From positions 3,660,001 to 3,724,000 of the forward strand of contig OZ076409.1 in assembly GCA_964187785.1 (NCBI GenBank): DNA of 64,000 bases. The letters run 5' to 3'. This stretch comes from Amphiscolops sp. MND2022 (taxonomy: Eukaryota). Each line of letters begins with the position of its first letter. Position 1 is the stretch's first letter. The position numbers and the translations under genes were made by a program. The notes under the pieces were generated by a model, which was not told where the DNA came from, did not search any database, and saw nothing but the letters and a program-made list of their open reading frames with translations. Of this stretch, positions 1,418 through 32,807 are shown one piece after another.

Positions 1418-2358
1418 CAAGACGAGAACGTCTAAAGTCGGCGCCATATCTAAGGCTCAAAAAGCGTAAAACACTTTTTTTGGAAAAAAATTGAAATTTT
1501 TGAAAAAAAATTTCTTTCAAAAGAAGTCGCATAGTGCCGAAAAATGTAAAAGGGGGGACCCTTCTGGATTTATTAACAAACATTCCGTTGCAAAATATCA
1601 AAAAACTCAAAGGGGGGACCCTTTGGGGACATTAAAAAATTTTCGAAAAAAAGTCGCACAGTGCCGAAAAAAATCCAAAAGGGGGACCCTTTGGGCACGT
1701 CCGGTTTTGTATGTTTCCTTGAAAAAGTAAAAAATGAAAGGGGGACCCTTTGGAGTAAAGTTTGTCTTGGGCGGACTTGGCCTCAGGTGCTCTGCTCAGG
1801 ATTGTAAAAAGTGGACCGATCAGTGTGAGGATTGTAGTCTGAAGAAAAAAAAAGGTCACTGCTATAGTCGGGCATTTTTTCAAGGAAAACGCGCCGACTA
1901 AAAACAAGCCGGGAACGGCATAAGTCGGCGCCATATCTAAAAATCAAAAATAGCAAAAGGACTTCAAGGTGTCAAGTATTCTCTTCTTTAGTACCCGAAA
2001 AACCCAAAAGTTGGACCGAACTGGAACGGTAAAAAAGGGGATTTCAAATTTTTCAACATCCATTCTGTTGCAAAATTTAAAGTTTTCGAAAAACAAAAAA
2101 ACGAGAACTTTGAAAAGCGTCATAGTGCCGAAAAATGTAAAGGGGGCCCTTTGGGATTTTTCATAATCGAATCTGTTGCAAAATATCAAAAAACTGAAAA
2201 AGGGGCCCTTTAGTCTCGCCCGGTATTGTTACGCTGAAAACAGGAACAACCTTTATAGTTCAGTTCTCTGGACCAAATGGTCCAATTTGATAACCTAAAA
2301 CTTCGTAGAACTATTTCGTCAGTTCATGTGGATTGAAGTCACTAATATAGTCGCGTTC
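1418..2358 (-). mobile_element. Two head-to-tail Helentron-associated (HINE/DINE-1-like) elements, family A
   Basis: Subterminal inverted repeat AGTCGGCGC/GCGCCGACT, a short hairpin at one end (AGACG..CGTCT), a second IR at the other, A/T-run insertion sites, no TSD and an internal GGGGGACCCTTT-rich minisatellite. Confidence 0.8.
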
Positions 2359-4091
2359 AGAAAAAGTTCGGGGAACTTCAAATCGTAGCATATTCAAAGT
2401 TTGGGAAACAACGCAGTGATGGATCGTCCACACGCAGTAAATACTGCGCGTCATATTCACATAACCAAAACTTCATTCAATGAGCCAATCAAATTAATCA
2501 GTAAAAATGGATACAACACAAGCGGCGAACTAATTACGATAATGTAATCAGCTATGCTCACGTACATCTGCTGCCCTAAATGCATGAGCGAAGCCATGCG
2601 GAGCGACGTGCCATTACTTGACCAGCGGCAGGTTTTGACGAAAGACGACCTGGAGTGGCGGAAAGCGACGCGGAAAGAGGAAGACTGAGTCATACAACCT
2701 ATATGAAAATATTCTTTGGTATGGAATTCTTTCAACGCTTTGAATAGTTTTTTTTCGAGAATATAAACATTCTACGAATTCAACAGTCACCAGAATTTTT
2801 AACCTAGTGAAAAGACCAGTGGCTACAGAGAAGTATGCATCAGCACGGTAAAACTTCGAAAGCTATCACGAATTCCACCAAATTCACTGTCTACCCGCTA
2901 GTGAATTCCTGCCCCGCCAGGTTAGAAAAACCTCAAAGAAAAACCCATACACGATATTACAGCTTCACGAGGAATCTATGGGCAATCGTTCAAATTTAGA
3001 GCAATGATAGAGATGAGTAAAACGATACGCAGTAAGTTGTAGATAGACATTCACAATTCGGGAAATGCTTGTTTGATAATTTGAAGGAAGAAAAACCAAA
3101 AACCAAAACAATGACATTAAAAACGACATTCAAACAACCTACACAGAATGCGAAATAAGTTTTTTATGGTATGTGAAAGTTTTCAAGAAAATGACACTTT
3201 TCAAGTAAGTAGCAAAACGATGAGCGTAATTTCATAACACATATATGACCATGACATTCTAATTATAATAACAGAGTAGAAAAGATGAAAAAACTAATTC
3301 TAAAAAGTTACTAACAACGTTCCAGAGAAGCCACCGAATGAGTAACTGGGTTCTGATATCTAAACTTGTGAATCTGTCTGACGAAATATTTCGGACAAAT
3401 TGGTATTTGAGAAACAAACGAAACTTATCTCCAGTAGTCATAGAGTAAACTGCATAACAAAACTGCATGCATCGAGGGGATTTCTTTGCAATTTCTCTGC
3501 GAGGAAATGTAACATTCTGAAAAGTCGAAGTTTGCAACAGCAGAAGGCACGATTAAGGTTAATGGAGAGTCTAGTAGTGGTTATTTGAGGGCTTTGTTTA
3601 CATAACTAAGAGAGCGTTCGCTGTGAAATAGAACATTTGCGCAAAATTTTGTAATTACCGGAAATTGGATGTGTCGAAATCAAATAGCAACATTTACTGC
3701 AGCAGATAGATAACATGCATAAAGTCCCGATTTCACAAATATTATGTAATTGGGTACGAGTTGAGTTCATCGACAGATGGTACCAACTGGGACCCTCGGG
3801 TTATAAAAAGTCCAAAAAAATGATACAATAGCACACGAACCCTTCCTTCTTGACCAATACAACACGCAGACCAGACCCGTTGAAGTAACCTCGACGCCAC
3901 CTCAGCAGCAGGAGAGTATATCGGAATTTTCTACATGTCATTGCATGTATAATATGATTTTTTGAAAAAGCGTAAAGGATTGAAGGACCAGTTTTTAAGA
4001 ATGAACTTTTGCACCATATAAAACTTAGAGAGCCTGATAATGATTTTGAAGACTTAACACCTGCATTGAGTAGGACGCATGGTCGGTGGTA

Positions 4092-5289
4092 CCAGGTGAA
4101 CAGAAAAACGGAATGCACAGAAATGTGTCTTCGAAGTAGTTTTACCTGTAAACAAGGACAGTGAAATTCTTTTTTTTCTGTTGTCAATCATTAGAAAGAA
4201 GCCCTTGTTACGTAATCACATCTTCAACTAAGGATGTTTCGAACCATCAGAAGAAGTTTAGACATATGTACTACTAGGTGAACCAAAAAAAAACGGAACG
4301 CACAAAAAATTTTATACTCTCAAAATGTCAAATATTTGTCACAAAATGTTTCAAAACAACTTTGAACGCTGAAATTCAGCTTGTCAATCTTTCAGTTTGA
4401 CAACATGGCTTTCACACATTCGAGTGTCAAAGAACTTTCACACTTCAGAAGTGCCAACAACTTGACTGGTAAAGATGTCTAGAATTTCTCGGAAAGTTTA
4501 AAGTATGCTCTGTTGAAGATGTGGTTACGTAATAAAAGCTTCATTTTGAATGCTCCACCGAAAAAGTGAATGCTTAACAGTGAATTGTTTACAAATATTC
4601 CAATTTTTGAACACTGAAATTTTTGTGCGTTCCGTTTTTTTTGGTTCACCTAGTACCAGTCATTTCCTCCACATCAAATCGTTCGAAGTCGTCGCGAAAC
4701 GTTCGTTGACAAGTATTTGAAACTTTAGATAGCTCGAAAATTTTTATACGTTCCATGTTTTTGGTGTAACTAGTACTATTACTGAGCTTATTTAGATGAA
4801 GGCGTGATTATGTAATGAGAGCTTCAATCCAAATGATTGACAGAAAATTGAAAAAGTTTCAGTACCCAGTTTACAAATTATACAATTTTGAAAACGCAAT
4901 AATCTGCGCGCTTTTTTGGTTCACCTACTAGGTGAACCAAAAAAAACGGAACGCATGAAATCATTTTGAGCTCTCAAAGTTCTAAATATTTGTCAACAAA
5001 TGTTTCAAAACAACTCTGAACATTGCAACTCAGCTTGTCAGTCATTCACTCTGACAACTTTATTCGAAGCAAATGAACTTTCACACATCAGAAGTGTGAA
5101 CGAAATGACTGGTAAAGACGTCTACCCTTTTTCCGAAGCTTCGGTTCATTCTTTGTTGAAAATTTGATTACGTAATGAGAGGATGATTGACAGAGACAGT
5201 GAAAATTTTCAAGTGTCTTGTTTACAAATATTACGTTTTTGAAGAGTGAAATATTTTTGTGCGTTCCGTTTTTTTTTTGGTTCACCTAG
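4092..5289. mobile_element. Cluster of nested Tc1/mariner-type MITEs (CTAGGTGAACC TIR family; copies 4274-4653 and 4928-5289)
   Basis: TA|CTAGGTGAACCAAAAAAAACGGAACGCA ... TGCGTTCCGTTTTTTTGGTTCACCTAG|TA. Confidence 0.85.
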
Positions 5290-5571
5290 TAATAGGTGAC
5301 TCACAAAAGACGGTACACCTAAAAATTTTGCAAAAAAGTGACAACGTAAAAATGTTTCATCTGACATACGAGGACATCTGACAGACATGGCAGGTTCTTT
5401 GAACTGAAATCAAGAAGAGCCATCCATCCAAAACCTGCTTTTTGATTTACAAGCTCAACTCAGAGTAACACACACATTGACAGCAGTTTGAAATGGACTA
5501 CACTGTCATCAATCAAAAGTCATGAATTTGAAAATGCCAGCAGCTTGTTCGCAAACGTGGGTGCTTTGGAA

Positions 5572-17249: not shown

Positions 17250-20156
17250 TCAATATTTATTATAGATAATACTTATCAGTTCATCATTTCCAAAAATGTA
17301 AAGATCTGCAATTTGGTGGTAGAACTTTTTATATTGCTTTTCATCCATTTCGCATATGTTTTTATCAGGAGGCAATACTCCCCATTTGCGTAATGCATTC
17401 GTTAATATTATTGCACGATAATCAAGAAGATCATTTTTTTCAGCAAAATTCCATATATTGAGATTTTGGTTCCTCGTTTGTCTATTCTGTATCCCAATAT
17501 TGAGAATTTTGAATCCATTTCTGATCTGATCAAGTGAAAATTTGAATAATTCATAGAGGTGATGTTCGAATACTGTTCCAATCCTGAATTCCTTGAATTT
17601 TTCTATGACACTGGCCCATGGAGGAAGCCGTAGAACTATCCGGATTAATTTTTTCTGAAGCAATAGAATTTTTTGTAGCTTAGATTTAGGTCCTAACCCA
17701 TAGAGAAGTGCACCATATTGAACAACTGGTGATACATATGATCTAATATACTGTATTAGTTGTCTTTTATTCAAAGTTTCCCTTAATTTATAAAGTATGC
17801 CACTATGTCGCGCAAGTTTTTGGATGACCTTGGTAATGTGTACTTCAAAATTAAGTTTTTTTATCAAAAAAGATTCCTAAATATTTATAACTCTCAATAG
17901 AGGATATTTCATTGTCCCCAATTTTTATGTTCGAGTACTTCACAGATCTTTTCTCAAAAACGACAAATTTTGTTTTTTCAGAATTACAGGCAACTCTGTT
18001 TTCCGACATCCAATTTTGCAAAAGATTTTTATCATCAGAGTTAGAGTTTAATTCATCTATCATAGCTGTATCATCAGCGTAAAGTATGAGGTCGCCCTGC
18101 CAATTTGGGTCGGTACCAAGATCATTTATATAAACAAGAAACAACAGACGTCCCAATATTGATCCCTGTGGTACTCCACGTATTATAGGTTTAATCGTAG
18201 AGCATTTATCCTCAATTTTCACAAACTGATACCTATCTGTCAAATAATGTTCTAAGAGTTTATGGGTTATGCCCCTGATACCGATATGGTATAACTTTTG
18301 TAATAAAATTTTGTGGTCAACTGAGTCAAACGCTTTTTTGAAATCAACAAAAATACAGTTTGTTTTCACTTTGGATTTCCAATTACTTTGAATTTTTTTC
18401 CATAACATCGTAGCTGCTTGTAAGCAATCTTTCTTTTTTCTAAAACCGTATTGATTTTCTGATAGTATTGAAAATTTTTCTAGATAATTCATGAGTCTTT
18501 TATGAATTACTTTCTCAAATATCTTTGATAGATTTCCCAAGATCGAAATCGGTCTATAGTTGGATGTTATATTTTTTTCTCCATCTTTAAAAATTGGAAC
18601 AACTTTAGCAATTTTCATACTTTTAGGGAAAACGCCTTCGGATATACATTTATTAAAAGCTGTTTTTAAATAGGGAGTGATAATTTGAGCCGCTGCTTTC
18701 AATATTCTCACGTTCACGCCATCTAATCCAACCGATTTTTTGTTTTTTAATTTGGCAATAAAATTATAAACTTCTTCATTAGTAACTGGAAAGAAGTACA
18801 TAGATTGCGAATGATATCCTTGTTGACTTGTCCATTTACTGGACATCGGTGCATTAATTTCTGGATCACAAGCAGTTATGAAATAATCATTGAATTGATC
18901 AACAGTCAATTCACTGGATTTTTTCACCTGAGTTTCTACTCCTCTCGATCTTTTTATATACTTGAAGAGTTCTTTTGGATTATTCCGATCAACTTTGCTT
19001 TGAACGTCATTCCGTTTAGCAGCTCTTATTTCCTTGTTAACTTCATTCCGCTTCACTTTGTATCTATGTAAGACCTCTGGTGATTTTGTTCTGATCCATA
19101 ATTGGTAGATTTTATCTCTGATAACTATATGCCTTTTGATACGGTTTGTTATCCAAGATTTATTGGGATCACGTCGTTTTATTCGTTTAAGTGGGAAGTA
19201 TTTCTCTGTTGCCTCTTTCAGGGTTTTTGTAATATTATCGAGATATGTTTCTGCTTTTGCATCTGATTCGGGAATTTTACCCTGAGAATGACTGAGAAAA
19301 AATAGAAACTTTTCACAATAAAGTGGATCGTCTAGCTTTTTTAAAGATCTAAATTCAAAAATCTCTTCTAATACTTCATAGTAAATATCTAAATCTAATT
19401 TAAGACTATAGTGATCAGAGAACGTGGTTTTTTCTATCTGGGATCTTTGAACAGTGATGTTACTGTATATAGAGTCAATACATGTTTCTCGTGTAGGTTC
19501 TCTCAAACTCACCAAGTCAAGACCTTGTGAATACATTAAATACTCTAATGATACTCGTGTAGCTAGATTTTCGTTTAACATATCAATATTGAAATCTCCA
19601 CAGGCTATCTGTAACCCGCCACTGTTGATTTCAAGAACTTCTTCGACGTGATCTAAATACTTACTTTTGTTTCTGGAAGGTTCGCAATAAAAACAAGAAA
19701 CTATGACTTTCTTTGTCTTTTTGAAGTCACTAACTTTCACTGAAATTGACTCATTGTATTCATCAGTGTGCAGGAGTTCTGCTTTCAAATCTAGCGTTAC
19801 ATAAATTGCTACACCGCCACCTCGTTTTTTAGTTCTAGTGCTGGCCAAAGGTCTGTCGTATCCTTCAAGACAATATAATTCTGCGTCACTTTCGCTCTTG
19901 AACCATGTTTCAGTGAGTGCAATGATTGAAGGCTTTCTTTCTGCTATCAAAATTTCTAAATTACCTAAGTTGGTTGATACGGATCTTATATTATTGTAGA
20001 AAAACGTAAATCCCTGCAACGTTCTATTTTTTGAGTTAGTGTTTAGTGATCTTATATATTTACAGTCTGTCTCCAATGCCTCTTCGGAGTTGCTTGGGTT
20101 GCTAGTTTTTATAGTTTGAAATAAGCAACTCCGTCGCTGTTAATGCTTTCTAACAT
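17250..20156 (-). pseudogene. LINE ORF2 (APE endonuclease + reverse transcriptase) with two 1-bp frameshifts
   Basis: NIRS, LTETW, GGGVAIYV, GDFNID, SDH endonuclease motifs; NYRPIS, DFKKAFDSV, GVPQGSILG, YADD, YLG RT motifs. ATG 20156 follows the ORF1 stop; frameshifts fall in A-runs near 20117 and 17860. Confidence 0.9.
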
Positions 20157-20157
20157 T

Positions 20158-21015
20158 TCACTTCTTTTGGCCATTTTCACTTTCGTTTAATCCAGTTTTT
20201 TTCAGTGGGGGCGAACAACCGATCAAATTTTGAATAAAGTTTTCTAAGCCATCTGTATCAGAAGCCTGCTTGTACTCTTTCAGTTTATTTGTAATATCCA
20301 CGTTTGAGAGCATATTGGGTGAATCCATAGGAAGCGGTCTTTTAGCTCTTGGTTCGCGTGGAGTTTCAGTAGCGGCACTTTTTCTCACTATAGCCTTGCC
20401 ACTTGTAAGAATTTCGTCTGCATCTGTTTCATCAACAATGAAATGAGACCTTGTATGCTGTCCGTCCTTCAGGAGCACCACTGGAGCACTGTTTTTCGAA
20501 GACACTTTGAGGCCCAATCCAGCTGCATAATCCGATAAGTCCCTGTCCCTCTTTGTCAGCCTCTCATGCATGAAAACAGGTTTATTGTTAACTGGGTTTC
20601 CGAAATTTCTGAGCCAATATTTCCTTGCCCATATCCTATCTTTTTTCCAAAAATGGACAAACTTGACTATTACAGGGGGTGGGAATTTGATATCCTTGAC
20701 TTGTCCCAGAAAATGACATGCTACAAGGTCTTGTTCATTTACCTGAGTTTGGAAGACTCGTGAGAAAAAGTTGATAACATCAGCTACTAAGTTGTTTCCG
20801 GAGATAAGAGGTAAGTTTTGAATAATAATTGAGTCCTTGGATGTATAACGCTCAATTCGATTAACAGATGTCTCAAGATACGCAACTTTTTGTTCCAGGG
20901 TTTCAATAGTTTTGTCTTTTTCCTGTAGATTTTGAATCAATTTCGAAAGAAATTCTTGTAATTCAGGCTGTATTTTATTGCCAAGTTTATTCAGCTCTTG
21001 CACTAAGTCCGCCAT
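20158..21015 (-). CDS. LINE ORF1 protein (coiled coil plus RRM-like region)
   Basis: MADLVQEL... coiled coil, then SIIIQNLP, DLVACHFLG, PPPVIVKF and VFMHERLT motifs typical of CR1/L2-type ORF1. Confidence 0.8.
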   Translation of the reverse strand: MADLVQELNKLGNKIQPELQEFLSKLIQNLQEKDKTIETLEQKVAYLETSVNRIERYTSKDSIIIQNLPLISGNNLVADVINFFSRVFQTQVNEQDLVACHFLGQVKDIKFPPPVIVKFVHFWKKDRIWARKYWLRNFGNPVNNKPVFMHERLTKRDRDLSDYAAGLGLKVSSKNSAPVVLLKDGQHTRSHFIVDETDADEILTSGKAIVRKSAATETPREPRAKRPLPMDSPNMLSNVDITNKLKEYKQASDTDGLENFIQNLIGCSPPLKKTGLNESENGQKK

Positions 21016-21522: not shown

Positions 21523-23861
21523 TACTTGGAAAACGACGAAAAAAGTGACGAGAAAACCAATCCATGAATGCGATTAAAAGACATTTACGGAGAAAAGATT
21601 ACTATTCTTGATTCTATTCACACGACGGTTGGCGGTTCGGACCATGAGTTCAATCAAACCCAAATGGTGTTGAATCTGACCCCGGTTAAATCTTGTATGA
21701 AATCCCCTCCCCAACACGAACGAACATTTCATTCTTGAAAATTATATTTTCAGCTAATAAGAGAATATTATATGTAAGATGTAAGTACTCAGAGGATTGT
21801 CTTTACAGCTGTTTTTTACCCTAATTTTTCGATATCATTGTCCAAAATAGCAAAAATTCAAGCACAGAACAAGATAAAACAGAATAAGGCCCTATTTCAA
21901 CGCGAATTTTCTCCGTGATAAACTCTAATGTGCAACTTTTAATTGACAGTCAATGTAATGGATAGGATTATGTCGACATCAATTATTTTATTGGGCCAAA
22001 TTTTCAACGCAAACGATGTCGATATAATGTAATTGAACACATGGTCCGGTACTTCTTCCAGGTGAAAAAAACAGTATGATTGACCACAAAATCTATTAAT
22101 TGATAAACATTTGGATTTAGTATGGCGATATTTGTAGTAGTAGCAGCAGCACATTTAATGATAATTGGGATGAAAACGAAGAGAGAACAGAGAAGACTAT
22201 AGAATTTGGCACCAAGTTTGAATCAAGCGAGTTCGTTCACCCAACACGAAGATGAGTTAGTAGCTGGATAATTATTTTCCCATAGTTTACGTCAACTGGC
22301 GATTGAAGAAATGCTTCATCATATTAAAAATGTAGAAAATTTCGTTCGAATCGTACTGACAGTTTTTGAGATTATCGAAAAAAGTCCAAAACCGGATGTT
22401 TTTTTGGCCATTTTTGGGCTACTTTTAGCTATGTTTCTCAGATCCTAGTCATTCGATTTTGATGCCATTGAGCACGCAGTTGCATATTTGGGTGCAAAAT
22501 GACCATGATTTTTTTTGAAAAAATAGTATGGACAGTTTTTGACAAAGTTAAAATTTTCATTGAAAGGTCGCGGGAAAAACTTTTTCCGACTCCTAATAAT
22601 TAACTCCGAAAAACAGAACTGACTCCCTTAAAGCGGAAAATGCATCTTTTCGGGATTCCTCACACTGTGGGGGAGGTTCATTATTGTTCATGGTTTTGGT
22701 AACAAGCGGGAAACGACCCAAATTGGCGTCCCGCTTGAAGCTCCATTACAGTGCATCTGCAAGCTTTTTCTGAGCGTTTTGCGAAAATCAGGACACGCTC
22801 ACTGAATTCATTCCCTTTTAATGTTCGTTGCCTTAGTTTCCTTTGAAGTTGAAATCTTACTTTCCGCAAATTTGTGTTATTGGATGTCCGAGGAAAGTTA
22901 ATGAGGCCAATTAGTTACCATTCATGACAGGCCTTAAAAGCGCTAATTAAGTAAAAGGCAAATAGAGCAAATTCTGTTTCAGAATCTAGAAATATAATCA
23001 GTAGATTATTTCTCACTTTCCGCAACAATCATCATCTTAGTTTCTGCATTTATTCTGAAATCTGATGAAAATTGATAGAAAAGAATATTTGGAACTTTTT
23101 ATCGAATGAAGCTTTACGATTCGACCTGTGATTGGAACCGAATTCTTTTCATTTCCATTCTAACTGATCTCATGAAATATACAAGTTTTATCCAACTGAT
23201 TATAAAGCTTAAACCGAAAATGGAAAGCTCGAATCATACCTAATTGAATAAAAACATTCGGGTAATTTAATATTTAGACTTACAATTGATCTCGTGACGC
23301 TTTTCTATTTTTTAAAATTTTTTAGCACTCTAAATTCCAACGGACTTTCAACGAAACTTTTCTTGTAAAATTTTCGTTTCATTCAAAGTAATTCAATTCT
23401 TCAAATCAAATTCAATTAATTATTGCGTAGCGGTGCAATTGGTACAAAAATTGGTTTCAAATGTGAAATCACTGAATGCTAATGCTTTCTGGGGTGACGG
23501 CTCAGTGGTTCAGAATCGAGTTCAAGCTTCTTTAGTCGATTTTTTTTCTATCTCAAACCAGTTGAAACTATGTATGAAACTAAATTTCGAACCCTCTTAA
23601 GATTGGTTATTATGCATTTTGTGGAATCCAAGACACGAATTTGTCGGCATACTGTCCGAATATTTTTGGTCCTAGTTTCTACAAACTGAAACCGGCTAAC
23701 GTATTAGGCCATGCCCTCGAGTTCCGAAAAATTCCGTGGCTTAGTTTCGGCAAAATCAGAGCTGATTTGCGAATTTTACACGTTTTGAGACAAGTTTGCG
23801 AAATCGGAGGGCCTACACGCACGAAAAGGTGACTGTAGCGATTTAGCTTGCATATGCACAG

Positions 23862-24357
23862 TGATAGAAAGGCCAGTAGTTAGTCATTCCGAAACTAGCG
23901 GCAATACCGAAAGGAACAGGCATAAACCATTACACCTAATTCCAGAATAATAAGATGAACTGAGTTCTACACTGATGGATACTTGCTGAGGCAGAAAAAA
24001 TTGAAAGTAACCAAAACATCAAGTGGGAAAACGAGAGATAGGACTTTCGCGAAAAAGACGTTTAGTTACTAAAAGTTACGGTCATGAAAACACGTTAAAA
24101 GTGGAAGAAGAAAAGGCGAACGATCAACACTGCCAAGACTAGTGATTTTCACACAAGAGACTAGCAGGATCGCCGCATGAATGAACCTTCCGCGTCGTGT
24201 GTGTTTCACAGTGTGGGCTGAAACCAATTTGCTTTACGACGCCAATCAACAAACTGTCAGAAACCAACTGTACGGTGCTAGAATAACTCAATAATAGAGA
24301 CTGTTGTTCTATATATATGCTAAACTAGCTGATCGATAAAAACTGTTGTTTCTATCA
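23862..24357. mobile_element. LTR-like segment (TGATAGAAA...TTTCTATCA termini)
   Basis: 9-bp terminal inverted repeat with TG...CA ends. It begins where a host repeat (shared with 31660-31900) breaks off. No TSD or partner LTR seen. Confidence 0.4.
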
Positions 24358-24636
24358 AATTGTTTTCTGATTAAGAACGTTAACGAGAAAGTAGAACTGA
24401 TTTAGAGCGGGAATGAGCAAAAACTAATGAATGAACAGCATGGAAGCATGAACAAAGTAGCATTTTTCAATTGATATTACAGTTGTTCAAATCTGATTTG
24501 TCGAATTCAAATTAGACTCAGTTTCTGGCATGTCAACATGTTTGCATGTTCTTTTCCTTTAGATATTCAACATTCTCCCCGCGTTGAACTAGCTTCAAAA
24601 TTTGTATTCTCTTTCAGATTATTCTTGCTTGTTGAA

Positions 24637-25524
24637 ATGGATGCCCAAAAAAACAATGAGATTGTTGACCAGAAGTTGAAGAAGCCATATCCAGTCAGAA
24701 TGAGGGGAAATACATCCATGAAAGCGAATCTGCGGACTGAGGCGAGAAGTTATGAGCTTGTTGACGGGAATCTGAAGAAGGCGGGCTTGTTTGTATTGCA
24801 TGAGAGTGACTTCGTAGAGGAAGTGCAAAAAATCCACGGGCGTTTTGGAGACAATCATCTTTATGGCTTGAGGAATGTGGAAACCCAGTTGAGGAAGAAG
24901 TGGCATTGTGTTGGTTTACGCCAAAAATTGCACAAGTTGTGTAAGAATCGGTGCAAACGTTGCCAATTGACAAACGGGGGTGTGATATGGTTCCAGCGAA
25001 TCATCCGGCAATTTGAACCACCAAGTGAAGAAGTCGCCATAAGTATCTGTCATCGACTGAATTTGAAGTATGTGGGTGTTCCCGAGGTATCCTACTGTTT
25101 GCCATTCAGGCAGCCGATGTCCGTCGACGCAATAGCACCGAATGGGAACTGTGTGTTTTTGTCCATCCTTTATTCAATTGGGGCAGACACAGCACAGCAC
25201 GCAGAGTTTAGACGCCAGGTTTTTGCTCATCTTGAAAGGGAGGAAATAGCTAAAGCGCTGAGGGAAATTTATGAAGACGGCTTCGATCTGTGTCTTGAAC
25301 ATCGTGAGGAAGAGTCCAAAGTTCATGCAAGAGTGTGCGGAATCGTCATCCATGCGGCAGCTTCCTTGATTGGAGTGGATATTCTTGTACACTGGGAGGG
25401 TGAAGATGGTGTGCTGGAATGGATGCTGGGACTGGCCTCCTTGAAGAAGAGGAACTGGGGCAGTCATCAAGTTGCTCTTCGCTGGGTGAATGATCACGTG
25501 GATTTCGTCAATAAAGTAAAATGA
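24637..25524 (+). CDS. Antisense ORF (295 aa): integrase-type H2C2 zinc finger plus OTU-like cysteine protease domain
   Basis: YP..MKANLRTEARSYELVDGNL then H(GRFGDN)H..G...C(KR)C. The C-terminal part has APNGNCVFLSI...HAEFRRQV...IHAAASLIGVDILV...NDHVDFV. A TTTCAG acceptor ends at 24617, just before ATG 24637. Confidence 0.7.
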   Translation: MDAQKNNEIVDQKLKKPYPVRMRGNTSMKANLRTEARSYELVDGNLKKAGLFVLHESDFVEEVQKIHGRFGDNHLYGLRNVETQLRKKWHCVGLRQKLHKLCKNRCKRCQLTNGGVIWFQRIIRQFEPPSEEVAISICHRLNLKYVGVPEVSYCLPFRQPMSVDAIAPNGNCVFLSILYSIGADTAQHAEFRRQVFAHLEREEIAKALREIYEDGFDLCLEHREEESKVHARVCGIVIHAAASLIGVDILVHWEGEDGVLEWMLGLASLKKRNWGSHQVALRWVNDHVDFVNKVK

Positions 25525-25537
25525 CGTTAGTTATTTG

Positions 25538-25649
25538 ACATCTTCTCTAGGTAGATTGAAAATGGGTAGGGTAAGTGAATAATAACAATAACCACATCTT
25601 CTCTAGGTAGATTGAAAATGGGTAGGGTAAGTGAATAACAACAATAACC
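25538..25649. repeat. Tandem duplication of a 56-bp unit between the convergent stop codons
   Basis: ACATCTTCTCTAGGTAGATTGAAAATGGGTAGGGTAAGTGAATAA(T/C)AACAATAACC occurs twice with one mismatch. Confidence 0.95.
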
Positions 25650-25660
25650 TTGTAACTTCA

Positions 25661-28222
25661 TTAAGTAGATTCAGCATGGTCATGAGAGACCTCCACTTGG
25701 TCGCGCGAGATTTCTGATAGAAGGGGTCTGAGTTTTGTCACAGGCCGAATTAGTATAGCATTCTTCGTCTTGAGTTTTGCAACCCGAGATATTTCATCAT
25801 TTCCTTGATAAAGTTCAAGTATCCTTGCAATAGGCCACTGGAGAGGTGTTGTATTGTCTTCGGCAATCAAGACCAAATCATGAACCTTGGGTTGCCGACC
25901 AATATGTTTCCACTTAGACACATTTTGAAGTTGATTCAGATATTCTCGAGACCAGCGATTCCAAAACTGTTGTCTCATCTTCTTGACAAGGTGGTATCGC
26001 CTTTCACTCGAGATGTTTAATTGTCTTGGGTCTTCTGGCAGACTATTTGGGCAAGTTCCCGTGAGGAAATGCCCTGGCGTTAGGGGTTCCAAGTCGTTAG
26101 GTTCGGAGCTCATCGGGGATAGTGGACGTGAATTCAATATTCCTTCAATTTGTATAACTAGTGTTAGGAATTCTTCATACGAAAGAATTGTATTGCCCAT
26201 GATCTTCTTGAGATGCAGTTTGACAGCCTTCACGCCTGCTTCCCATAATCCTCCGAAGTGTGGGGCTCGGGGCGGGATCATCGTCCATTGTGTTCCAAGA
26301 TTTGTAGCAAATTGTGAAATAGAATTTCTCCTTTTCGCTAGGATCAATTTAAGTTGTATAAGTTCATTTCGTGCACCAATAAAATTTGTACCATTGTCGC
26401 TAAATATTGCAGCCGGTACTCCCCGCCTTGCTACAAATCGTTTTAATGCGGCAATGCATGCCTCGGTAGTCAAATTAGAGACAATTTCCAGGTGAATGGC
26501 CTTTGTAGCGAAGCAAACGAACAATGAGATGTACACTTTCTCTGTTGATTTCAAAGTTCCTTTCAACTTGACATGAAATGGTCCGGCAAAGTCAATGCCA
26601 CAATTTGTAAATGGCTTACTAGGAGTGATTCTTTCTTCAGGTAAAGGTCCCATAGGGGTTTGAAATGATGTATGTGCGAACCGAGCACATGTAGTACACG
26701 CTTGAATTATTCGACGAACAACATTTCGGGCATTCACGAACCAAAATTGTTGACGAAGGTTGTACAATGTCGATTGTGGACCAGCATGAAGACATTGTTG
26801 ATGATGACGAACCAAAATCTTCACGAGATGAGAATTGGCTTCGAGTAGAACTGGGTGTTTGACATTGTCATCCATGTCAGATTGATACAATCGGCCACCG
26901 ACTTTCATAAGACCGTCGGTTTCATCAATAAAGGGATTCAGTCCAATGAATTTGTGTTTCCGTGGAAGCTGCCTTTCTTCACGAAGTAGTTGAATTTCCT
27001 CTTGAAAGTATTGAGCTTGATGATCTTTGACTATTTGGTGTTGAGCAGACTTCAGTTCGGTCAATGTGAGACAAAGTTGTTGCGGACTCTTCGAACGCAA
27101 TTGTCGAATGAATCTCAAAACATAACCTTGCGTGTTTCTCAGTCTTTTATATTGTGAGAACCTTTCATGATCTAGTTGTGGCGTAGGTAACACGACGCTA
27201 TACACGCTTGGTTTGATTTTCCTTTTCTCAATTGCAACTTCTCCAATGACCGGCTTGTCGGGCCATTGATTGGGACTCGTCAAGAATTGAGGGCCATTCC
27301 ACCAGAGTTGGTTGTTGATTATCTGAGGTGCATGTGTACCCCGTGATGCAATGTCTGCTGGGTTTGACTTCGTAGGAACGTGAAACCAACGAGATGGTGG
27401 GATGAAATTTTGTATGTCGGCCACTCGGTTTGCCACAAATGTGTTCCATTTTGAAGGTAAAGCCTGTATCCAAGCTAACGTGATCGTGCTATCTGTCCAT
27501 GCGAATGTCTCCAGATTCTTCAGATTGACTGATTTGAATGCCTTGAGTATCTTATCGGTCAACTTCGCGCCCAATTGTGCTCCGCACAATTCTAAACGTG
27601 GCAATGAGACTGTCTTGATGGGAGCAACCTTCGATTTCGCTGCAATGAGATGGGAAATTCTTTCGCCTGTGGCTTTCTCTGTGACGAGGTAGACAGTTGC
27701 TGCATATGCATGAATGGATGCATCTGTGAAGCAGTGAATTTCGTGTTTGACTGGGTCACAGTCTGTGATGAAGCGATTCAATGTGAATGTTTCCAGAGTT
27801 TCGATGCCCTTGATGTCTGCATTGAATTCTTCGATCAGATTTTCTGCCAGAGGTTCGTCCCAGGCTAGACCCAGGGTCCACAAATGCTGAATCCAGATCT
27901 TGGCCTTGATGGTTATTGGAGTGAGCCACCCTATTGGGTCGAACAATTTGGCAATCTGACAAAATTTGTCTTTTAGTCACAGGTGGATTGATTTTGGGTA
28001 GGGTACAAGTGAACTTGAAATGGTCTTTCTGAGGTTGCCACGTGATTCCCAACGTTCGGATAGTTGAATCTGCTTCCAATAGATTCACTAAATCACCTCC
28101 ACGCATATCTGGCGGCAGTCTTTCCACAAGTGTTTGATCATTAGAGACCCACTTCCGAAGGGGCAATTTGGCTTTTTCCAATGTTGCTATGAGTTCATCT
28201 TGCAGACCCTTGGCATCTTTAG
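25661..28222 (-). CDS. BEL/Pao pol (partial): RT C-terminus, Pao RNase H/peptidase A17 region, H2C2 finger, DDE integrase; frameshift near 27955
   Basis: LRKWVSN, TLGITW, FDPIGWLTP, FTDAS..AYA, KSKVAP, LPRLELCGA, WTDS, FVANRV, NPADIASRG, GIDFAGP, SDNGTNF, PHFGGLWEAGVK, LNSRPL, LTPGHFL. Confidence 0.92.
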
Positions 28223-28570
28223 GTTCTGGGTTTCTTCGCTGAGAGGTACTTGGTGATATCCACAAGAGAGATCGCTTGCTGTGAAGTATTTGCCGTTAAT
28301 TCTTGTCATAATCACGGACTGGTTCGAGTGGCCAAGAGTAGTTTGTTGAGTCGGTGATAGAAATTAGATATCTTGCGTCAATTACAAACTTAACGTAGTC
28401 AGCTTTAGGTAAGAGAATGATGAGGTTTACAAAGAGCGAACCAAGTTCGTCGTCGTCTCCCATTTCACTAATGATGCCAGTTTCTTGCAGTTGTCCGAGT
28501 AGTTTTTCGAGTTTATCTTTCAGATGAAGTGTAACTTTCCAAGGACGCTGTTTGCGGAGTTCTGAGTAAA
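28222..28570 (-). pseudogene. Ty3/Gypsy-type reverse transcriptase N-terminal fragment
   Basis: Manual translation gives QRPWKVTLHLKDKLEKLLGQLQETGII...IDARYL...WPLEP/(frameshift) INGKYFTASDLSCGYHQVPLSEETQNL, matching the Gypsy 'F..DL..GYHQ' motif. Confidence 0.75.
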
Positions 28571-28614
28571 AAACTTAAGACTTAATTTGTTTTGGCTCGA
28601 GAAATATTCGAAGA

Positions 28615-29928: not shown

Positions 29929-32807
29929 CAACTGAACATTCGAATATAACAAGTTCTATAAAGTTGAAATGTCTCAAACTAAGTCATAAAAGCCGCTCGA
30001 CCACAGTCCCTGACAAGGGATAATCTGGTTATGTGGTTCCTCATCCTGTGTCCGTACCCAAATGACTTCCCACACGGAAAGCTAAAGTGAGCGCATCTTT
30101 TTTTTTCGCTCACAGCTTCCGTAAATGCAAAGGCATTTTTTCGAAAAGAAATATCAAGATTCTGCTTTTTCATGAACTAGGTATTATTCATAGTACGGCC
30201 CAGATTGGAACCAAAATTTTCCTAAAGTTATATGAACTCCAACTTTAATCAAACGTTCGACTGTAATCGAAGACTAAGTTTTTTCCTTGGAGTCTTCTAA
30301 ATCTGTGTATGTCAATTTTCGGGTTTTGATACTTTTCCGTTCGACAATCTTGGTCGATGTAAAACAGCAAAAAATCGAAGACAAAATTTCATTCCCTCGG
30401 TGTATTCTTCTTGATGAAATGCGAAAACGACTGATGTTTGTAGTTTTTCTAGAATCTGGCATTTAATTTGGAATTAGTGGAAACCAAGAAAAACAATTGT
30501 GAACGATTTTGGGCAATAAAAATGGCTCGAAAAATTTTATTTTCTGCCCTAACGGAACTCGTTCTGAGTCGATGTACTTGATACCCGACGCTGATTGCCC
30601 AATAGAAATTACCCTTGGTTGAAGTCGTAAACTTTTTGATAAGCGACATTGAATAACCTATTCGACTCACTTGATCTAAATATTAAAGAAATTTCAGGTA
30701 ATTATAGGATGAGTGGAATCGTAAAACATTCCAAACGATTGAATTCAACTTTGCCCACGATTGCAGTCAAAAAATTTTCAATTCCATTCCAAGTAATTCG
30801 ATAAATAATTTATATTTATTCAAGCAGAAACTAAGGATTAAACAGAAAATGGACTGCTGTAATTGTACCAATTTCGGGGTCTTTTCTGTTATCACATAGA
30901 AAAAACTCAAAAAGATATTTTAGTTCAGTTTGCTATTATTGAATTGAACTTCTTTCAACCCACCATTGGAGCCAAACTCTTTTCATCTCCAATCCCGGTA
31001 ATTCAATAAGATTGTGAAATCAATTCCAGTTGAAACTAAAAACTAAACATAAAATGGAACGGTGTAATGGTACCAAATCGGGCGTACTTTCCGTTATTAC
31101 CTCCGGTGAAATAGTTCCCACCGTTAGAAATCCACCTATTTTTGGCACTTTTAGCAAAAAACCTTTACCAAAAACTAGAAAATTTTCTCATGCTCTGTCA
31201 GAAGGCCATAAGTTCTTTGAACGGAAAAGATTTTAAAACATTTGGGTAACCTAATATTTCGAGTTGCAGATGATCTTGCAGTGACGTTTCTATATAAATT
31301 CCGGCACATTTTCAAACTTTATTAAATCAGATTCAAAATCCCAAAATGCTGATGTTTTGATTAATTTAGTTATTAATGCATTGAAGCTTTACTATTTAAC
31401 CAACGATTGGAACCAAAATCTTTCATTTCCATTCTACTTGATTAAAAAAAACTTTTTATCAGCTTTATTCCAGTTGAAAGAAGCCTATCCCCTATTTAAC
31501 GATGAAAGGAAGAAAAGCCGACAATTTTACGGAACACGAGGCATTAGTTGGGACTTGTTTGTGGTATCTGAATTCATATTTACTCTCTGGCTTATTAGGT
31601 TTAATATCGACTAACTAAAATGTGAGTGGAAACAGACGCTATAATTTAGAGCCATTCGATTGATTATTATGCTTCTGTGAAATCTAAAACACGAATTTGT
31701 TGGTATATTTTTGGTCCCAGTTTCCAGAAACCGAAACCGGGTAACGTATTACGCAATGCCCTCGGATTCCGAAAAAGGAGAAAACTTCGTGGGGTGGTTT
31801 CTGCAAAATCAGACCTCATTTGCGAATTTTAAATGTCCGCGGAAACGGAGGGCCTACGCGCACAAAAATAAGTCTGTAGCGATTTAGATTGTAGATGCAC
31901 AGTCAAAAAGAGCAGAACATTTTTATAAACATGCTCTTGGGAAGTAATTGGGAAATTGTTACGAACAGTAGTAAAAAAAGGCCTCCAGAGACTAAAAAAA
32001 CACTTTTCCCCACTGAAACCATCCAAAAAATCATTACTCTGGTCTGCGTTTTAAACGAAAGCACCAACTAAAATGAGGCTTTCATTAGTTACAGAGTGTG
32101 AAGAAATTTAAGTTCCAAAAATTCATTTTCAGATCACGTTAATAAAGTGACTTTTTAAGCGTTTTTGCCAACTAACTTTTTCCCAGAACCAACTTAGTAT
32201 CATGGTATGATTTCATTTCTTGCTAAATTGATTTAATTCGTTCATTTAAAAAAAGTGATACCAGTGTCTAGATGTAGCTATTTTAGGCGGCCTCACTTGA
32301 TCAAAATCGACATTAAACAAAGATTTTGAATAGAATTAAATGAATTTTCAACGAGCACCGAAGATATGCAATTAAGTGAAGGAGAAATGATAAGTGAATG
32401 CATTGATGAAGATTAAAGGGGGGGGGTAAAGTAAACAGAATGCACAAAATATTGCAGCACAGAATATATTTGCCCTATTTTCAGAATAAAACAACAACAG
32501 ATATATATTTGCCCTATTCACAAGTACATTGCAACAAATTAGGGGATCGAATCTAAAAATTTGAGGTAAAAAACGTGAATGAAAAATTCAATTTTCATCA
32601 AAAATGGGTATTACTTCGATAATTTTTTTTAAAATTGAAAACTTTCCACAGAATAAAAAAGTTATCCTGACAGGACTGGGAATAGAGCAAGTGATACTTT
32701 AGGGTCATGAGACATATGACCTTTGTGTCCTGAGTTTTATTTTAGGTCGTCACATTGTGACCTCAGTTTTTGAGATAGAGTCCAATATTCTAATTGATCA
32801 TTACTAA

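Follow-up and report, generated by a model that had tools for sequence, protein, structure and literature searches.

A clade of BEL/Pao LTR retrotransposons in Amphiscolops sp. MND2022 carries an antisense accessory gene (P0001) that is, very probably, a genuine clade-wide gene whose product has an OTU fold. The best explanation of the gene as a whole, held here with considerable confidence, is that of an antisense accessory gene of this clade whose product joins a zinc domain to an OTU domain, has predicted deubiquitinase activity, and likely derives from a Ginger1 transposase with loss of the DDE core. Additional antisense genes have been described chiefly in the LTR retrotransposons of plants; here, an animal BEL/Pao element has one with two readable folds, one of which retains an intact catalytic pair, so that its function is directly testable. 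Transposases are repeatedly found joined to a ubiquitin or SUMO protease, as in Ginger1, Helitron, and Mutator, but, to our knowledge, the purpose of this pairing has never been tested. The P0001 gene connects this pairing to gene flow from DNA transposons to retrotransposons and to ubiquitin-based control of retroelements by the host. A deubiquitinase that is active and targets the integration machinery, if that is what the gene encodes, would have no precedent among retrotransposon accessory factors in the literature searched.

In the window (the whole 64,000-nucleotide stretch of contig OZ076409.1 that was analysed), the gene is an ATG-to-stop frame of 295 codons plus stop on the plus strand (24637-25524), conserved throughout the family. 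It lies between the 3' LTR (24269-24572) and the stop of the minus-strand pol (25661). Open reading extends back to 24475, and a further in-frame ATG lies upstream, at 24538, within the LTR. An earlier note on this DNA had described an uninterrupted 295-residue plus-strand reading frame inside a BEL/Pao element and antisense to it; this description is borne out, also in full-length copies. The LTR junction was rightly placed at 24572. The LTR itself is on the minus strand, is 304 bp long with TGT...ACA ends, and resembles both LTRs of two other copies, L036 and a 6.9-kb copy on contig C4 (window positions 24264-24572 align to both LTRs of the latter). Adjoining it is the polypurine tract CGCGGGGAGAA (minus strand, 24573-24583, read directly), and this polypurine block upstream of the reading frame is kept in other subfamilies too.

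The remainder of the window copy is the 3' part of pol, the RNase H-integrase region (25661-28220, minus strand), identified by tblastn with the intact L036 gag-pol and by Pfam; the minus-strand integrase reading frame that ends at 25661 matches DUF5641, rve, and Integrase_H2C2. Between the two stop codons, the spacer contains two tandem copies of a 56-nucleotide unit (25538-25649, 98% identical), as against a single copy in L036. Near 27954-27964 the pol frame shifts: frame -1 covers L036-pol residues 974-1741, and frame -3 covers residues 888-976. The copy is also truncated at its 5' end at 28220, and neither a 5' LTR nor any further element sequence was found beyond that point within the window. 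It retains only the 3' LTR, the accessory reading frame, and 2.6 kb of pol, and with its frameshifted pol and 5' truncation it is a dead fragment. The earlier contrast of an intact accessory frame with a frameshifted pol is correct on both counts but incomplete, as it passed over the truncation.

The window frame differs by 2-3% from its counterpart in the full-length sister copy on C4 (dN/dS 0.71), so its intactness alone tells little. Since youth could explain that intactness, the reality of the gene rests on evidence from the family. P0001 has 122 matches in its own genome, and 21 of the 27 near-full-length ones lack a stop codon, which places the frame beyond chance. The best 30 of these 122 matches all share one position and orientation, each lying tail-to-tail with a BEL/Pao integrase; this answers the question raised earlier of whether other copies hold the gene at this place. 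Two full-length copies, from different subfamilies, contain it inside an LTR pair bounded by 5-bp target duplications: L036 (LTRs 99.4% identical, duplication CCGCC) and the C4 copy (LTRs 99.0% identical, duplication GCCAA). The gag-pol of L036 is one frame of 1741 amino acids with DUF1759, Peptidase_A17, H2C2, rve, and DUF5641 domains; the membership of L036 in BEL/Pao is evident from its TG...CA LTR pair, target duplication, Pao protease, and BEL-type integrase tail. The accessory frame thus retrotransposes as part of the BEL/Pao element. Every one of the subfamilies with integrases just 61-70% identical has the frame, and none of 30 more distant BEL/Pao loci (integrases 41-52% identical) has a P0001 homologue within 1.5 kb. 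The gene is present in every clade member examined and absent from more distant BEL/Pao elements.

Between subfamilies the frame is under purifying selection (pN 0.31-0.42, pS 0.78-0.88), which is the outcome of the dN/dS comparison among copies that the earlier note had proposed. The gene has also been swapped between lineages as a cassette: pol can be 98% identical in nucleotides while the accessory frame is 55% identical in amino acids. Cassette exchange, together with the splice-like borders described below, suggests a portable module.

The structure model of P0001 (pLDDT 93.1) comprises two domains. The N-terminal integrase-like domain (residues 1-112; 24637-24972, plus strand; model pLDDT above 90) contains a YPYY-type segment (Y18-P19) and an HHCC zinc finger (H67, H74, C106, and C109). 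The OTU cysteine-protease domain with its leader segment occupies residues 119-295 (24991-25521, plus strand), as assigned from structure matches and hhalign. Its catalytic set consists of C172 (25150-25152) in the motif PNGNC, and H287 (25495-25497) and D289 (25501-25503) in the motif NDHVD; these motifs and those of the head are all present as named before. In VIA-align comparisons, ranks 1-23 are all OTU domains (Z 13.0-8.5), among them OTUD3 (Z 13.0, rmsd 2.8, 121 aligned), the Taggert virus OTU (Z 12.9), and yeast Otu1 (Z 10.1); the turnip yellow mosaic virus proteinase is also listed (Z 6.3). Residues 2-106 match the N-terminal domains of the Ty3 integrase (Z 8.0, 98 aligned) and the PFV integrase (Z 7.7). 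Foldseek returned 20 hits at E<=0.001 (OTUD1, E 1.1e-5), and those listed are all OTU domains. Model and alignments together support the architecture first proposed, an integrase-type zinc domain without a DDE core followed by an OTU fold with Cys, His, and Asp, and structure prediction recovers both expected folds.

In the protein of the window copy itself, Pfam gave no match to OTU or to Integrase_H2C2. An OTU match was obtained in six of 12 family members at E<=1 (best 3.8e-6), and L033-type copies exceed the Pfam OTU cut-off in the genome scan with 29-30 bits; against PDB sequences, the family profile reaches only E 0.15-0.36. The DDE core and the GPY/F module are absent: neither the window protein nor the 12 family members gave a Pfam match to rve, and the stretch from the zinc finger (C109) to the OTU leader (F119) is just about 10 residues long. 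C172 and H287 are unchanged across 42 homologues, and HVD is present in all 12 rows of alignment A1; H-x-D is the usual layout of the OTU triad. The Cys motif aligns with those of OTUD5, OTUD1, and OTUD3, and in most subfamilies, including the window's, it reads NGNC rather than the usual DGNC. P0001 is predicted, with somewhat better than even confidence, to be an active isopeptidase. It shares its fold and the positions of the catalytic Cys and His with OTUD1, OTUD3, yeast Otu1 and Otu2, and the OTUs of nairovirus L proteins, and the nairovirus matches additionally span extra N-terminal strands (model residues 115-160). Unlike these viral and cellular deubiquitinases, to which its sequence identity is 8-20%, P0001 has an integrase-type head that is otherwise found in Ginger1-like relatives only.

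The C-terminal protease domain of Ginger1 transposases can be OTU or Ulp1. P0001 resembles the OTU-bearing Ginger1 transposases (Bao, Kapitonov and Jurka 2010, PMC2836005) in having a YPYY-type segment and H2C2 at its N-terminal extreme and an OTU domain at its C-terminal extreme. It differs from them in that it lacks a DDE/rve core and leaves no space for a GPY/F module, in that neither TIRs nor a CCGG/CCGT duplication surround its gene, and in that it is a stand-alone protein of 295 amino acids encoded antisense within an LTR retrotransposon. Library proteins matching P0001 at E<=0.001 number 305, including Ginger1-like proteins with H2C2, rve, and OTU and Helitron proteins with OTU; the Ginger1-like proteins P0051, P0057, and P0081 match both halves. 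With hhalign, the OTU part aligns to Ginger1-like proteins (probability 97.7%, E 1.5e-12) up to the last residue at both C-termini. A profile of residues 1-118 matches the N-termini of the Ginger1-like P0057 (1-116), P0051, and P0031 with 24-26 bits, the alignment starting from residue 1 and pairing profile positions 1-109 with Ginger1-like residues 1-116. With the same profile, the Gypsy integrases tested reach 2.4 bits and BEL pol gives no hit, and the domain bears no detectable likeness to the N-terminus of the element's own integrase (hhalign E 0.3). From these alignments, P0001 likely descends from a Ginger1-type transposase minus its DDE core. The capture of a core-deleted Ginger-like gene, as the earlier note put it, stands as far as both ends are collinear with Ginger1-like transposases, whereas the OTU trees fit either Ginger1 or Helitron. 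Two low-power searches of the same genome revealed no Ginger1 element with an OTU domain.

An origin in which the two domains were assembled separately, with the OTU coming from a Helitron-type element, another transposon, or a host OTU gene and the head from an LTR-element integrase, is unlikely. It draws on the OTU tree, in which the long branch of the BEL clade (2.35) attaches to a group of mixed Helitron and Ginger1 membership and not to the Ginger1-like OTUs; in a 43-row tree the clade groups with Helitron-type OTUs at forks with SH-aLRT of 84-94. A tree constrained to unite BEL and Ginger1 is, however, 2.55 log-likelihood units worse and not rejected (p-AU 0.216). Most library matches start at query residues 120-125, and the leader segment before the OTU is common to Helitron-type proteins. 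YPYY motifs also occur in some Gypsy integrases, according to the account of Bao et al. (PMC2836005), but it is the Ginger1-like N-termini, and not the tested Gypsy integrases, that the head profile scores highly. Against separate assembly, moreover, the start and the end of the protein are both exactly Ginger1-like, and among 27 library hits scanned, H2C2 and OTU occur together only in Ginger1-like proteins and in short P0001-type forms. That the reading frame reached the window copy through a separate insertion, either of a small DNA transposon nested in the element or of a stretch of host gene, is contradicted by the shared position and orientation at 30 of 30 loci, by the LTR pairs with target duplications in two subfamilies, and by its occurrence in all subfamilies with integrases 61-70% identical. 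A search for inverted repeats flanking the frame found none, and the 5-bp duplications (GCCAA, CCGCC) bound the LTRs. Such an insertion, which the earlier note had allowed for, is exceedingly improbable, its appeal being a priori and tied to the window copy being itself a fragment.

Two alternatives concern function rather than descent. P0001 might be a core-less mimic of integrase, a regulator or decoy that competes for LTR ends or integrase subunits in copy-number control or in interference with rivals, with the OTU domain secondary or inactive. Repression by truncated transposases is known and would provide a precedent by analogy; the N-terminal domain is conserved and the best-predicted part of the protein, and in most subfamilies Asn replaces the usual Asp before the catalytic Cys. 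Across the 42 homologues, however, C172 and H287 never vary, and conservation of the OTU half equals or exceeds that of the head; retention of the catalytic pair at identities as low as 41% would not be expected of an inert domain, and we consider this reading quite improbable. The other alternative, that the OTU domain is a processing protease for the element's proteins and not a deubiquitinase, is very improbable. P0001 is a separate protein of 295 amino acids, not embedded in gag-pol, the element has an aspartic protease of its own (Peptidase_A17), and the best fold matches are dedicated deubiquitinases and de-ISGylases. What speaks for processing is the presence of the turnip yellow mosaic virus proteinase among the fold matches (Z 6.3), an enzyme that both processes its own polyprotein and removes ubiquitin; some RNA-virus papain-like or OTU proteases act on their polyproteins.

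The preferred reading, an antisense gene for a deubiquitinase, calls for expression from the strand opposite to gag-pol, and the coding block is bordered by splice-like sites. A 3' splice-acceptor-like site, with a pyrimidine run to TTTCAG and then AT (24607-24617, plus strand), ends 19 nucleotides before the ATG; the TTTCAG had been pointed out before and is present, ending at 24617. One nucleotide after the stop is a weak 5' splice-donor-like GTTAGT (25526-25531, plus strand); use of either site is putative. YAG followed directly by AT occurs 6-19 nucleotides before the ATG in all seven subfamily types examined, and in other subfamilies a donor-like GTGAGT, GTAAGT, GTATGT, or GTCAGT occurs 0-4 nucleotides after the stop. 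On this strand GTRAGT is scarce (four to five per element), and two to three of these lie directly after the frame. Acceptor-like and donor-like borders are thus conserved across subfamilies. The LTR, read on the strand of the gene, yielded no donor-like site, so a cis-spliced leader is not evident. An AATAAA on the same strand (25510-25515), seven nucleotides before the stop, belongs to the window allele only and is absent in other subfamilies.

In the proposed mechanism, an antisense transcript starting in or beyond the 3' LTR would express the gene. In all subfamilies the coding block has an acceptor-like site ahead of its ATG and a donor-like site at its stop, and may therefore be an exon of that transcript; splicing would also remove the ATG-rich LTR leader. 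The N-terminal domain of retroviral-type integrases holds LTR-end DNA and neighbouring integrase subunits; that of P0001 could recruit the protease to LTR DNA or to the integration complex of the element. There, the OTU protease would deubiquitinate proteins of the element or the host, or free them of a ubiquitin-like tag, and tag removal would shield replication intermediates from ubiquitin-dependent destruction or silencing. This targeting mechanism is put forward tentatively, and docking onto the BEL integrase is a guess because the head is of Ginger/Gypsy type and not detectably like the N-terminus of the element's own integrase. A broader scenario, rather doubtful as a whole, is that a BEL/Pao lineage tamed both ends of a Ginger1 enzyme as a stand-alone, spliced antisense gene, whose product has a mini-integrase head for docking at LTR ends or at the integration complex, and an active OTU that erases ubiquitin-type anti-element marks of the host. 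The cassette would then have been traded between lineages and would evolve faster than the integrase, as in a host arms race.

Among known systems, the closest in layout are the aORF-3R antisense reading frames of plant Ty3/Gypsy elements (Grande gene23, RIRE2, Retand, and PvRetro13) and of the fungal Boty (brtn), as treated by Vicient and Casacuberta (2020, PMC7264820). According to that review, these frames occur in all or most copies of a family, an accessory or regulatory role is assumed for them, and their antisense promoter is proposed to lie in the 3' LTR or close to it. Clear database similarity has, by the same account, been described for none of the proteins, although ORF2 of PvRetro13 carries a conserved SMC domain. 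Like them, the P0001 gene runs opposite to the element in the interval from pol to the 3' LTR, at 30 of the 30 best loci including two full-length copies. Unlike these frames of plant and fungal Gypsy elements, it belongs to a BEL/Pao element and encodes two recognisable folds, one of them enzymatic. Captured enzymes are encoded by the ORF3s of bdelloid rotifer LTR retrotransposons (GDSL esterase and DEDDy exonuclease; PMC5408684). These resemble P0001 in that the family-specific third frame of an animal LTR retrotransposon is an enzyme, built of modules common to different classes of mobile elements. The rotifer enzymes are different ones, and none of the four clades named in PMC5408684 is BEL/Pao; in that paper the term OTU is absent and the single use of "antisense" refers to small RNAs.

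HTLV-1 HBZ, too, is a protein-coding gene that a retroelement carries on its minus strand, adjoining the 3' LTR and driven from it. A spliced form of HBZ joins a short LTR exon to the coding exon. An HTLV antisense promoter inside the 3' LTR is cited in PMC7264820. Unlike P0001, HBZ is a bZIP regulator of a vertebrate retrovirus with no enzymatic domain, and the two are unrelated in sequence. Helitron Rep/helicase proteins (P0033, P0053, P0055, P0101, and P0119) share with P0001 the transposon-type OTU subgroup, including the leader segment; their OTU is one domain in proteins of about 1700-2850 amino acids that have no H2C2 head.

The open reading frame (ORF) under study runs for 295 codons from ATG to stop on the plus strand (24637-25524) and lies antisense within a minus-strand copy of a BEL/Pao retrotransposon. 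Frame reading and the family copies confirm that it is intact, internal to the element, and antisense to it, as the earlier note had described. The integrase ORF of the element's pol (minus strand) ends with a stop at 25661, and its Pfam matches (DUF5641, E 7e-31, with rve and Integrase_H2C2) form the BEL/Pao-type set. The LTR (24269-24572, minus strand) has exact, readable TGT...ACA termini and is adjoined by the polypurine tract that the same note had placed there; window 24264-24572 is assigned as an LTR because it matches twice, 6.9 kb apart, in a full-length sister copy on contig C4 that is 97-98% identical to the window copy. An LTR pair was searched for within the 64-kb window and not found, and no remaining BEL/Pao element sequence occurs elsewhere in it. 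The window copy is a frameshifted, 5'-truncated fragment with an intact ORF, since full-length relatives share only 24264-28219 with it and since pol residues 974-1741 and 888-976 are in different frames; the frameshift had been recognized before, and the truncation is added here.

Other elements lie close to this fragment. Just past the truncation point, within 28221-28574, a minus-strand frame (28296-28574) reads like the beginning of a reverse transcriptase from another retroelement and has no Pfam match; at this junction the BEL copy may have been broken by, or fused to, another element. A LINE-like element adjoins the BEL copy at 17851-21015 (minus strand), with a 576-aa reverse-transcriptase ORF (17851-19581) and a 285-aa ORF1-like frame (20158-21015). 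Weak direct similarities between 23107-23862 and 31382-31903 (76-86% over 44-212 nt), outside the BEL copy, are possibly the remains of an older repeat.

The ORF is a regular component of one group of BEL/Pao elements. In the 1.07-Gb genome to which the window belongs, it has at least 122 matches at E<=0.001 (133 of 160 candidates were scored), and 21 of 27 near-full-length matches, among the matches listed, are free of stops. At each of the best 30 loci of these matches the homologue stands tail-to-tail with a BEL/Pao integrase, the same position in other family copies that the earlier note had suggested checking. The full-length reference copy, L036, is a complete young element with LTRs 99.4% identical, a CCGCC target duplication, and a single 1741-aa gag-pol frame containing DUF1759, Peptidase_A17, Integrase_H2C2, rve, and DUF5641; a spacing of 50 nt separates its ORF from the 3' LTR, on the internal side, and the pol stop is 155 nt away. 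The C4 sister copy has LTRs 99.0% identical and a GCCAA target duplication. Inverted repeats flanking the ORF, which had been named beforehand as the mark of an independent nested insertion, were looked for and not found. The reading of the ORF as an unrelated nested insertion is contradicted, and its probability is close to nil.

The ORF marks a single clade (integrase at least 61% identical) and not all BEL/Pao elements, because none of 30 more distant BEL/Pao loci (integrases 41-52% identical to that of the window) carries a homologue within 1.5 kb. These were the best 30 loci from an own-genome DUF5641 scan that gave 6215 candidates, 150 of which were scored. Among the ORF-bearing subfamilies, the most divergent includes a copy (L034, G000:C6:50331501-50341000) whose integrase region is duplicated head-to-tail (1901-3687 and 3684-5469, 1.8 kb, 99.8% identical). 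At G000:C9:36685508-36690909, several ORF fragments with stops, 67-73% identical to the window protein and spaced about 3.1 kb apart, have the look of a piece of a related element that has been amplified in tandem and has decayed.

Pfam finds nothing significant in the window protein; across 12 family members it reports OTU in six (best E 3.8e-6) and Integrase_H2C2 in one. A profile search of PDB sequences ranks OTUD5, OTUD1, and OTUD3 at the top, aligned at the catalytic Cys, at E values of only 0.15-0.36. An AlphaFold model from a 42-sequence alignment reaches a pLDDT of 93.1 and a pTM of 0.76, and replaces a first model from 12 sequences (pLDDT only 69.8; weak Foldseek rows at E 0.19-5). 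This model, together with a structure search against representatives in which ranks 1-23 are all OTU domains, bears out the earlier expectation of an H2C2 part joined to an OTU fold with Cys-His-Asp. The OTU matches include OTUD3 (Z 13.0, rmsd 2.8, 121 aligned), the Taggert virus OTU (Z 12.9), the CCHFV OTU (Z 12.7), and yeast Otu1 (Z 10.1). Foldseek with the 42-sequence model gives 20 matches at E<=0.001, with an OTU domain in every row among the matches listed; a search of the ESM Atlas returned no usable match. Residues 2-106, the integrase-type head, match the Ty3 integrase (Z 8.0, 98 aligned, chain residues 26-131), the foamy-virus integrase (Z 7.7, chain residues 8-96), and the N-terminal domain of MoMLV integrase (Z 5.0); the matched integrase region is presumably the DNA-end-binding and subunit-binding part of the intasome. 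Among the 42 sequences the only invariant columns are C172 and H287, and the H-V-D ending and the HHCC ligands (H67, H74, C106, C109) are kept across the family.

As defined by Bao et al. (PMC2836005), Ginger1 transposases combine YPYY, an H2C2 finger, a DDE core, and GPY/F with an OTU or Ulp1 domain at the C-terminus; according to the same account, YPYY is absent from BEL integrases. Over its positions 1-109 the ORF profile aligns at 24-26 bits with Ginger1-like proteins (their residues 1-116); the head profile scores 2.4 bits on the tested own-genome Gypsy integrases. For the OTU half, alignment with the C-terminus of Ginger1-like proteins continues to the last residue (probability 97.7%, E 1.5e-12). 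Alignment at both ends, with only about 10 residues in the ORF where Ginger1 has about 400, is the pattern left by a Ginger1-type gene that has lost its core. As a source of the head, recent duplication of the N-terminus of the element's own integrase was considered and rejected, the head profile having no match in the element's own pol and hhalign giving E 0.3.

A profile search of a library of 1.84 billion representative proteins yields 305 matches at E<=0.001, 27 of which were scanned with Pfam. The Ginger1 layout (H2C2+rve+OTU) is present in three of the 27 (P0051, P0057, P0081), Helitron Rep/helicase proteins with OTU make up five, and a Herpes_teg_N-like region is combined with OTU in another five. 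P0031 (449 aa; a Nucella lapillus protein according to one source) has H2C2 and OTU, as do P0029 and P0058 within about 300 aa. In OTU trees, the BEL clade falls together with two library homologues, P0010 and P0011 (support 100), and their long branch joins a group in which Helitron and Ginger1 sequences are mixed; a BEL+Ginger1 grouping is absent from the recovered trees, yet it is not rejected (delta lnL 2.55, p-AU 0.216). Two low-power searches of the own genome found no Ginger1 element with OTU. The Ginger1-like protein P0057 as query gave 26,376 candidates, of which 66 were scored, all about 31% identical over the integrase part, with one Gypsy family dominant. A Pfam OTU scan, of low power since the model misses most BEL copies, gave nine matches (four BEL copies of the DGNC subtype, three short host-like pieces, one 2244-aa frame, and one OTU-first 511-aa frame on contig C1676), none of which combines H2C2, rve, and OTU. 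The OTU-first frame (L076 280-1815, minus strand; G000:C1676:9116-12355) is G+C-rich, lies on a small contig, and is unlike the BEL gene; it could be another transposon type or foreign DNA.

The core-deleted Ginger-like gene proposed in the earlier note is upheld in the alignment of both ends and the loss of the core, but not in the OTU trees, which do not recover BEL with Ginger1. Tree placement and the low-power own-genome null count against a Ginger1 origin of the ORF, which on balance is still somewhat favored. On the rival account the head and the OTU domain, each alignable with Ginger1-like proteins, would have separate origins, and this seems rather unlikely.

From one subfamily to another, differences per site amount to 0.31-0.42 (non-synonymous) and 0.78-0.88 (synonymous, saturated); within subfamilies dN/dS is 0.45-0.78, as expected from decay after insertion. 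The ORF diverges faster than the integrase (integrase identities of 90%, 74-79%, and 58-65% correspond to ORF identities of 68%, 54-65%, and 40-50%), and the window type is an outlier in this relation. Against L036 its pol is 98% and its LTR 93% identical in nucleotides, whereas window 24603-25546 (the ORF and about 30 nt on either side) has no nucleotide similarity and a protein identity of only 55%. At another locus, L030 (G000:C6:55396429-55399800), a window-type LTR and ORF (93-97% nucleotide identity, 300 bp of the ORF deleted) accompany an integrase that shares only 76% identity with that of the window; L030 is possibly a relative of the lineage that donated the window-type cassette. The L036 mismatch and the L030 pairing show that lineages have exchanged the ORF as a module.

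The ORF is a conserved, mobile, and selected gene whose two-domain product has kept both residues of the OTU catalytic pair. This product is predicted to be an active deubiquitinase; the integrase-like head would take this protease to the LTR ends or the integration complex, where ubiquitin-type marks would be removed from element or host proteins. Two other readings are unlikely: that the protein works through its head as a decoy or regulator, which is slightly less probable than separate origins of the two domains, and that the OTU domain is a processing protease, which is less probable still. The overall interpretation in the earlier note was largely right on anatomy, namely an ORF within the element with an integrase-type head and an OTU fold.

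An OTU domain is already on record for Ginger1 and for Helitron proteins (PMC2836005), and rotifer LTR elements carry enzymatic third ORFs (PMC5408684). Antisense extra ORFs of plant Gypsy elements share the position and orientation of the BEL ORF; for the products of these ORFs, a review states, clear similarity to database entries has not been described (PMC7264820). Full-text literature searches turned up no paper that describes an OTU gene carried by an LTR retrotransposon, BEL/Pao or otherwise; only the Ginger paper surfaced, plus reviews of extra ORFs. The main text of the BEL/Pao survey PMC3118150 contains neither "antisense" nor "OTU" and mentions only env, and "OTU" does not occur in the main text of PMC6338049.

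Splice-like signals frame the gene on its own strand. A pyrimidine-rich YAG|AT site lies 6-19 nt before the ATG in all seven subfamily types examined, and a GT follows the stop by 0-4 nt in eight of nine sequence types (one decayed copy has none). The post-stop site is a full GTRAGT in four types and GTATGT, GTCAGT, or GTAAAA in others, while the window type has GTTAGT. An element contains no more than 4-5 GTRAGT sites on the ORF strand, 2-3 of them just after the ORF (GTRAGT-like sites in the post-ORF spacer are two of four in L036 and three of five in another locus, L037). No GTRAGT donor-like site was found in the LTR on this strand, the LTR stretch upstream of the ORF holds many ATGs, and a search of the LTR for clear promoter motifs on the ORF strand gave only palindromic TATATATA (window and L036 types) and TATAAAG (L037 type). 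Judging from these signals, the coding block would be an exon in a transcript antisense to the element, matured by splicing in cis or by addition of a spliced leader.

Upstream of the ORF start, the frame also runs without a stop across the polypurine tract and on into the LTR (window 24538-24636; L036 1678-1761), with an in-frame ATG at 24538 that gene callers use (328-aa P0002, 323-aa P0003) and that may be an alternative start or a product of chance; open upstream frames with an LTR ATG are present in other subfamilies as well (L034, P0005). Between the ORF stop and the pol stop, window 25538-25649 consists of two tandem 56-nt copies, 98% identical, of a unit that is present once in L036 and contains a perfect donor-like GGTAAGT. 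On the ORF strand, a purine-rich motif in which a G-run precedes an ATTGAA..TGGGTAAG-like stretch recurs in the post-ORF spacers of subfamilies otherwise without nucleotide similarity (window 25525-25660; L036 2650-2806; L037 2632-2816; and, in two further loci of the clade, L033 4086-4272 and L022 1300-1497).
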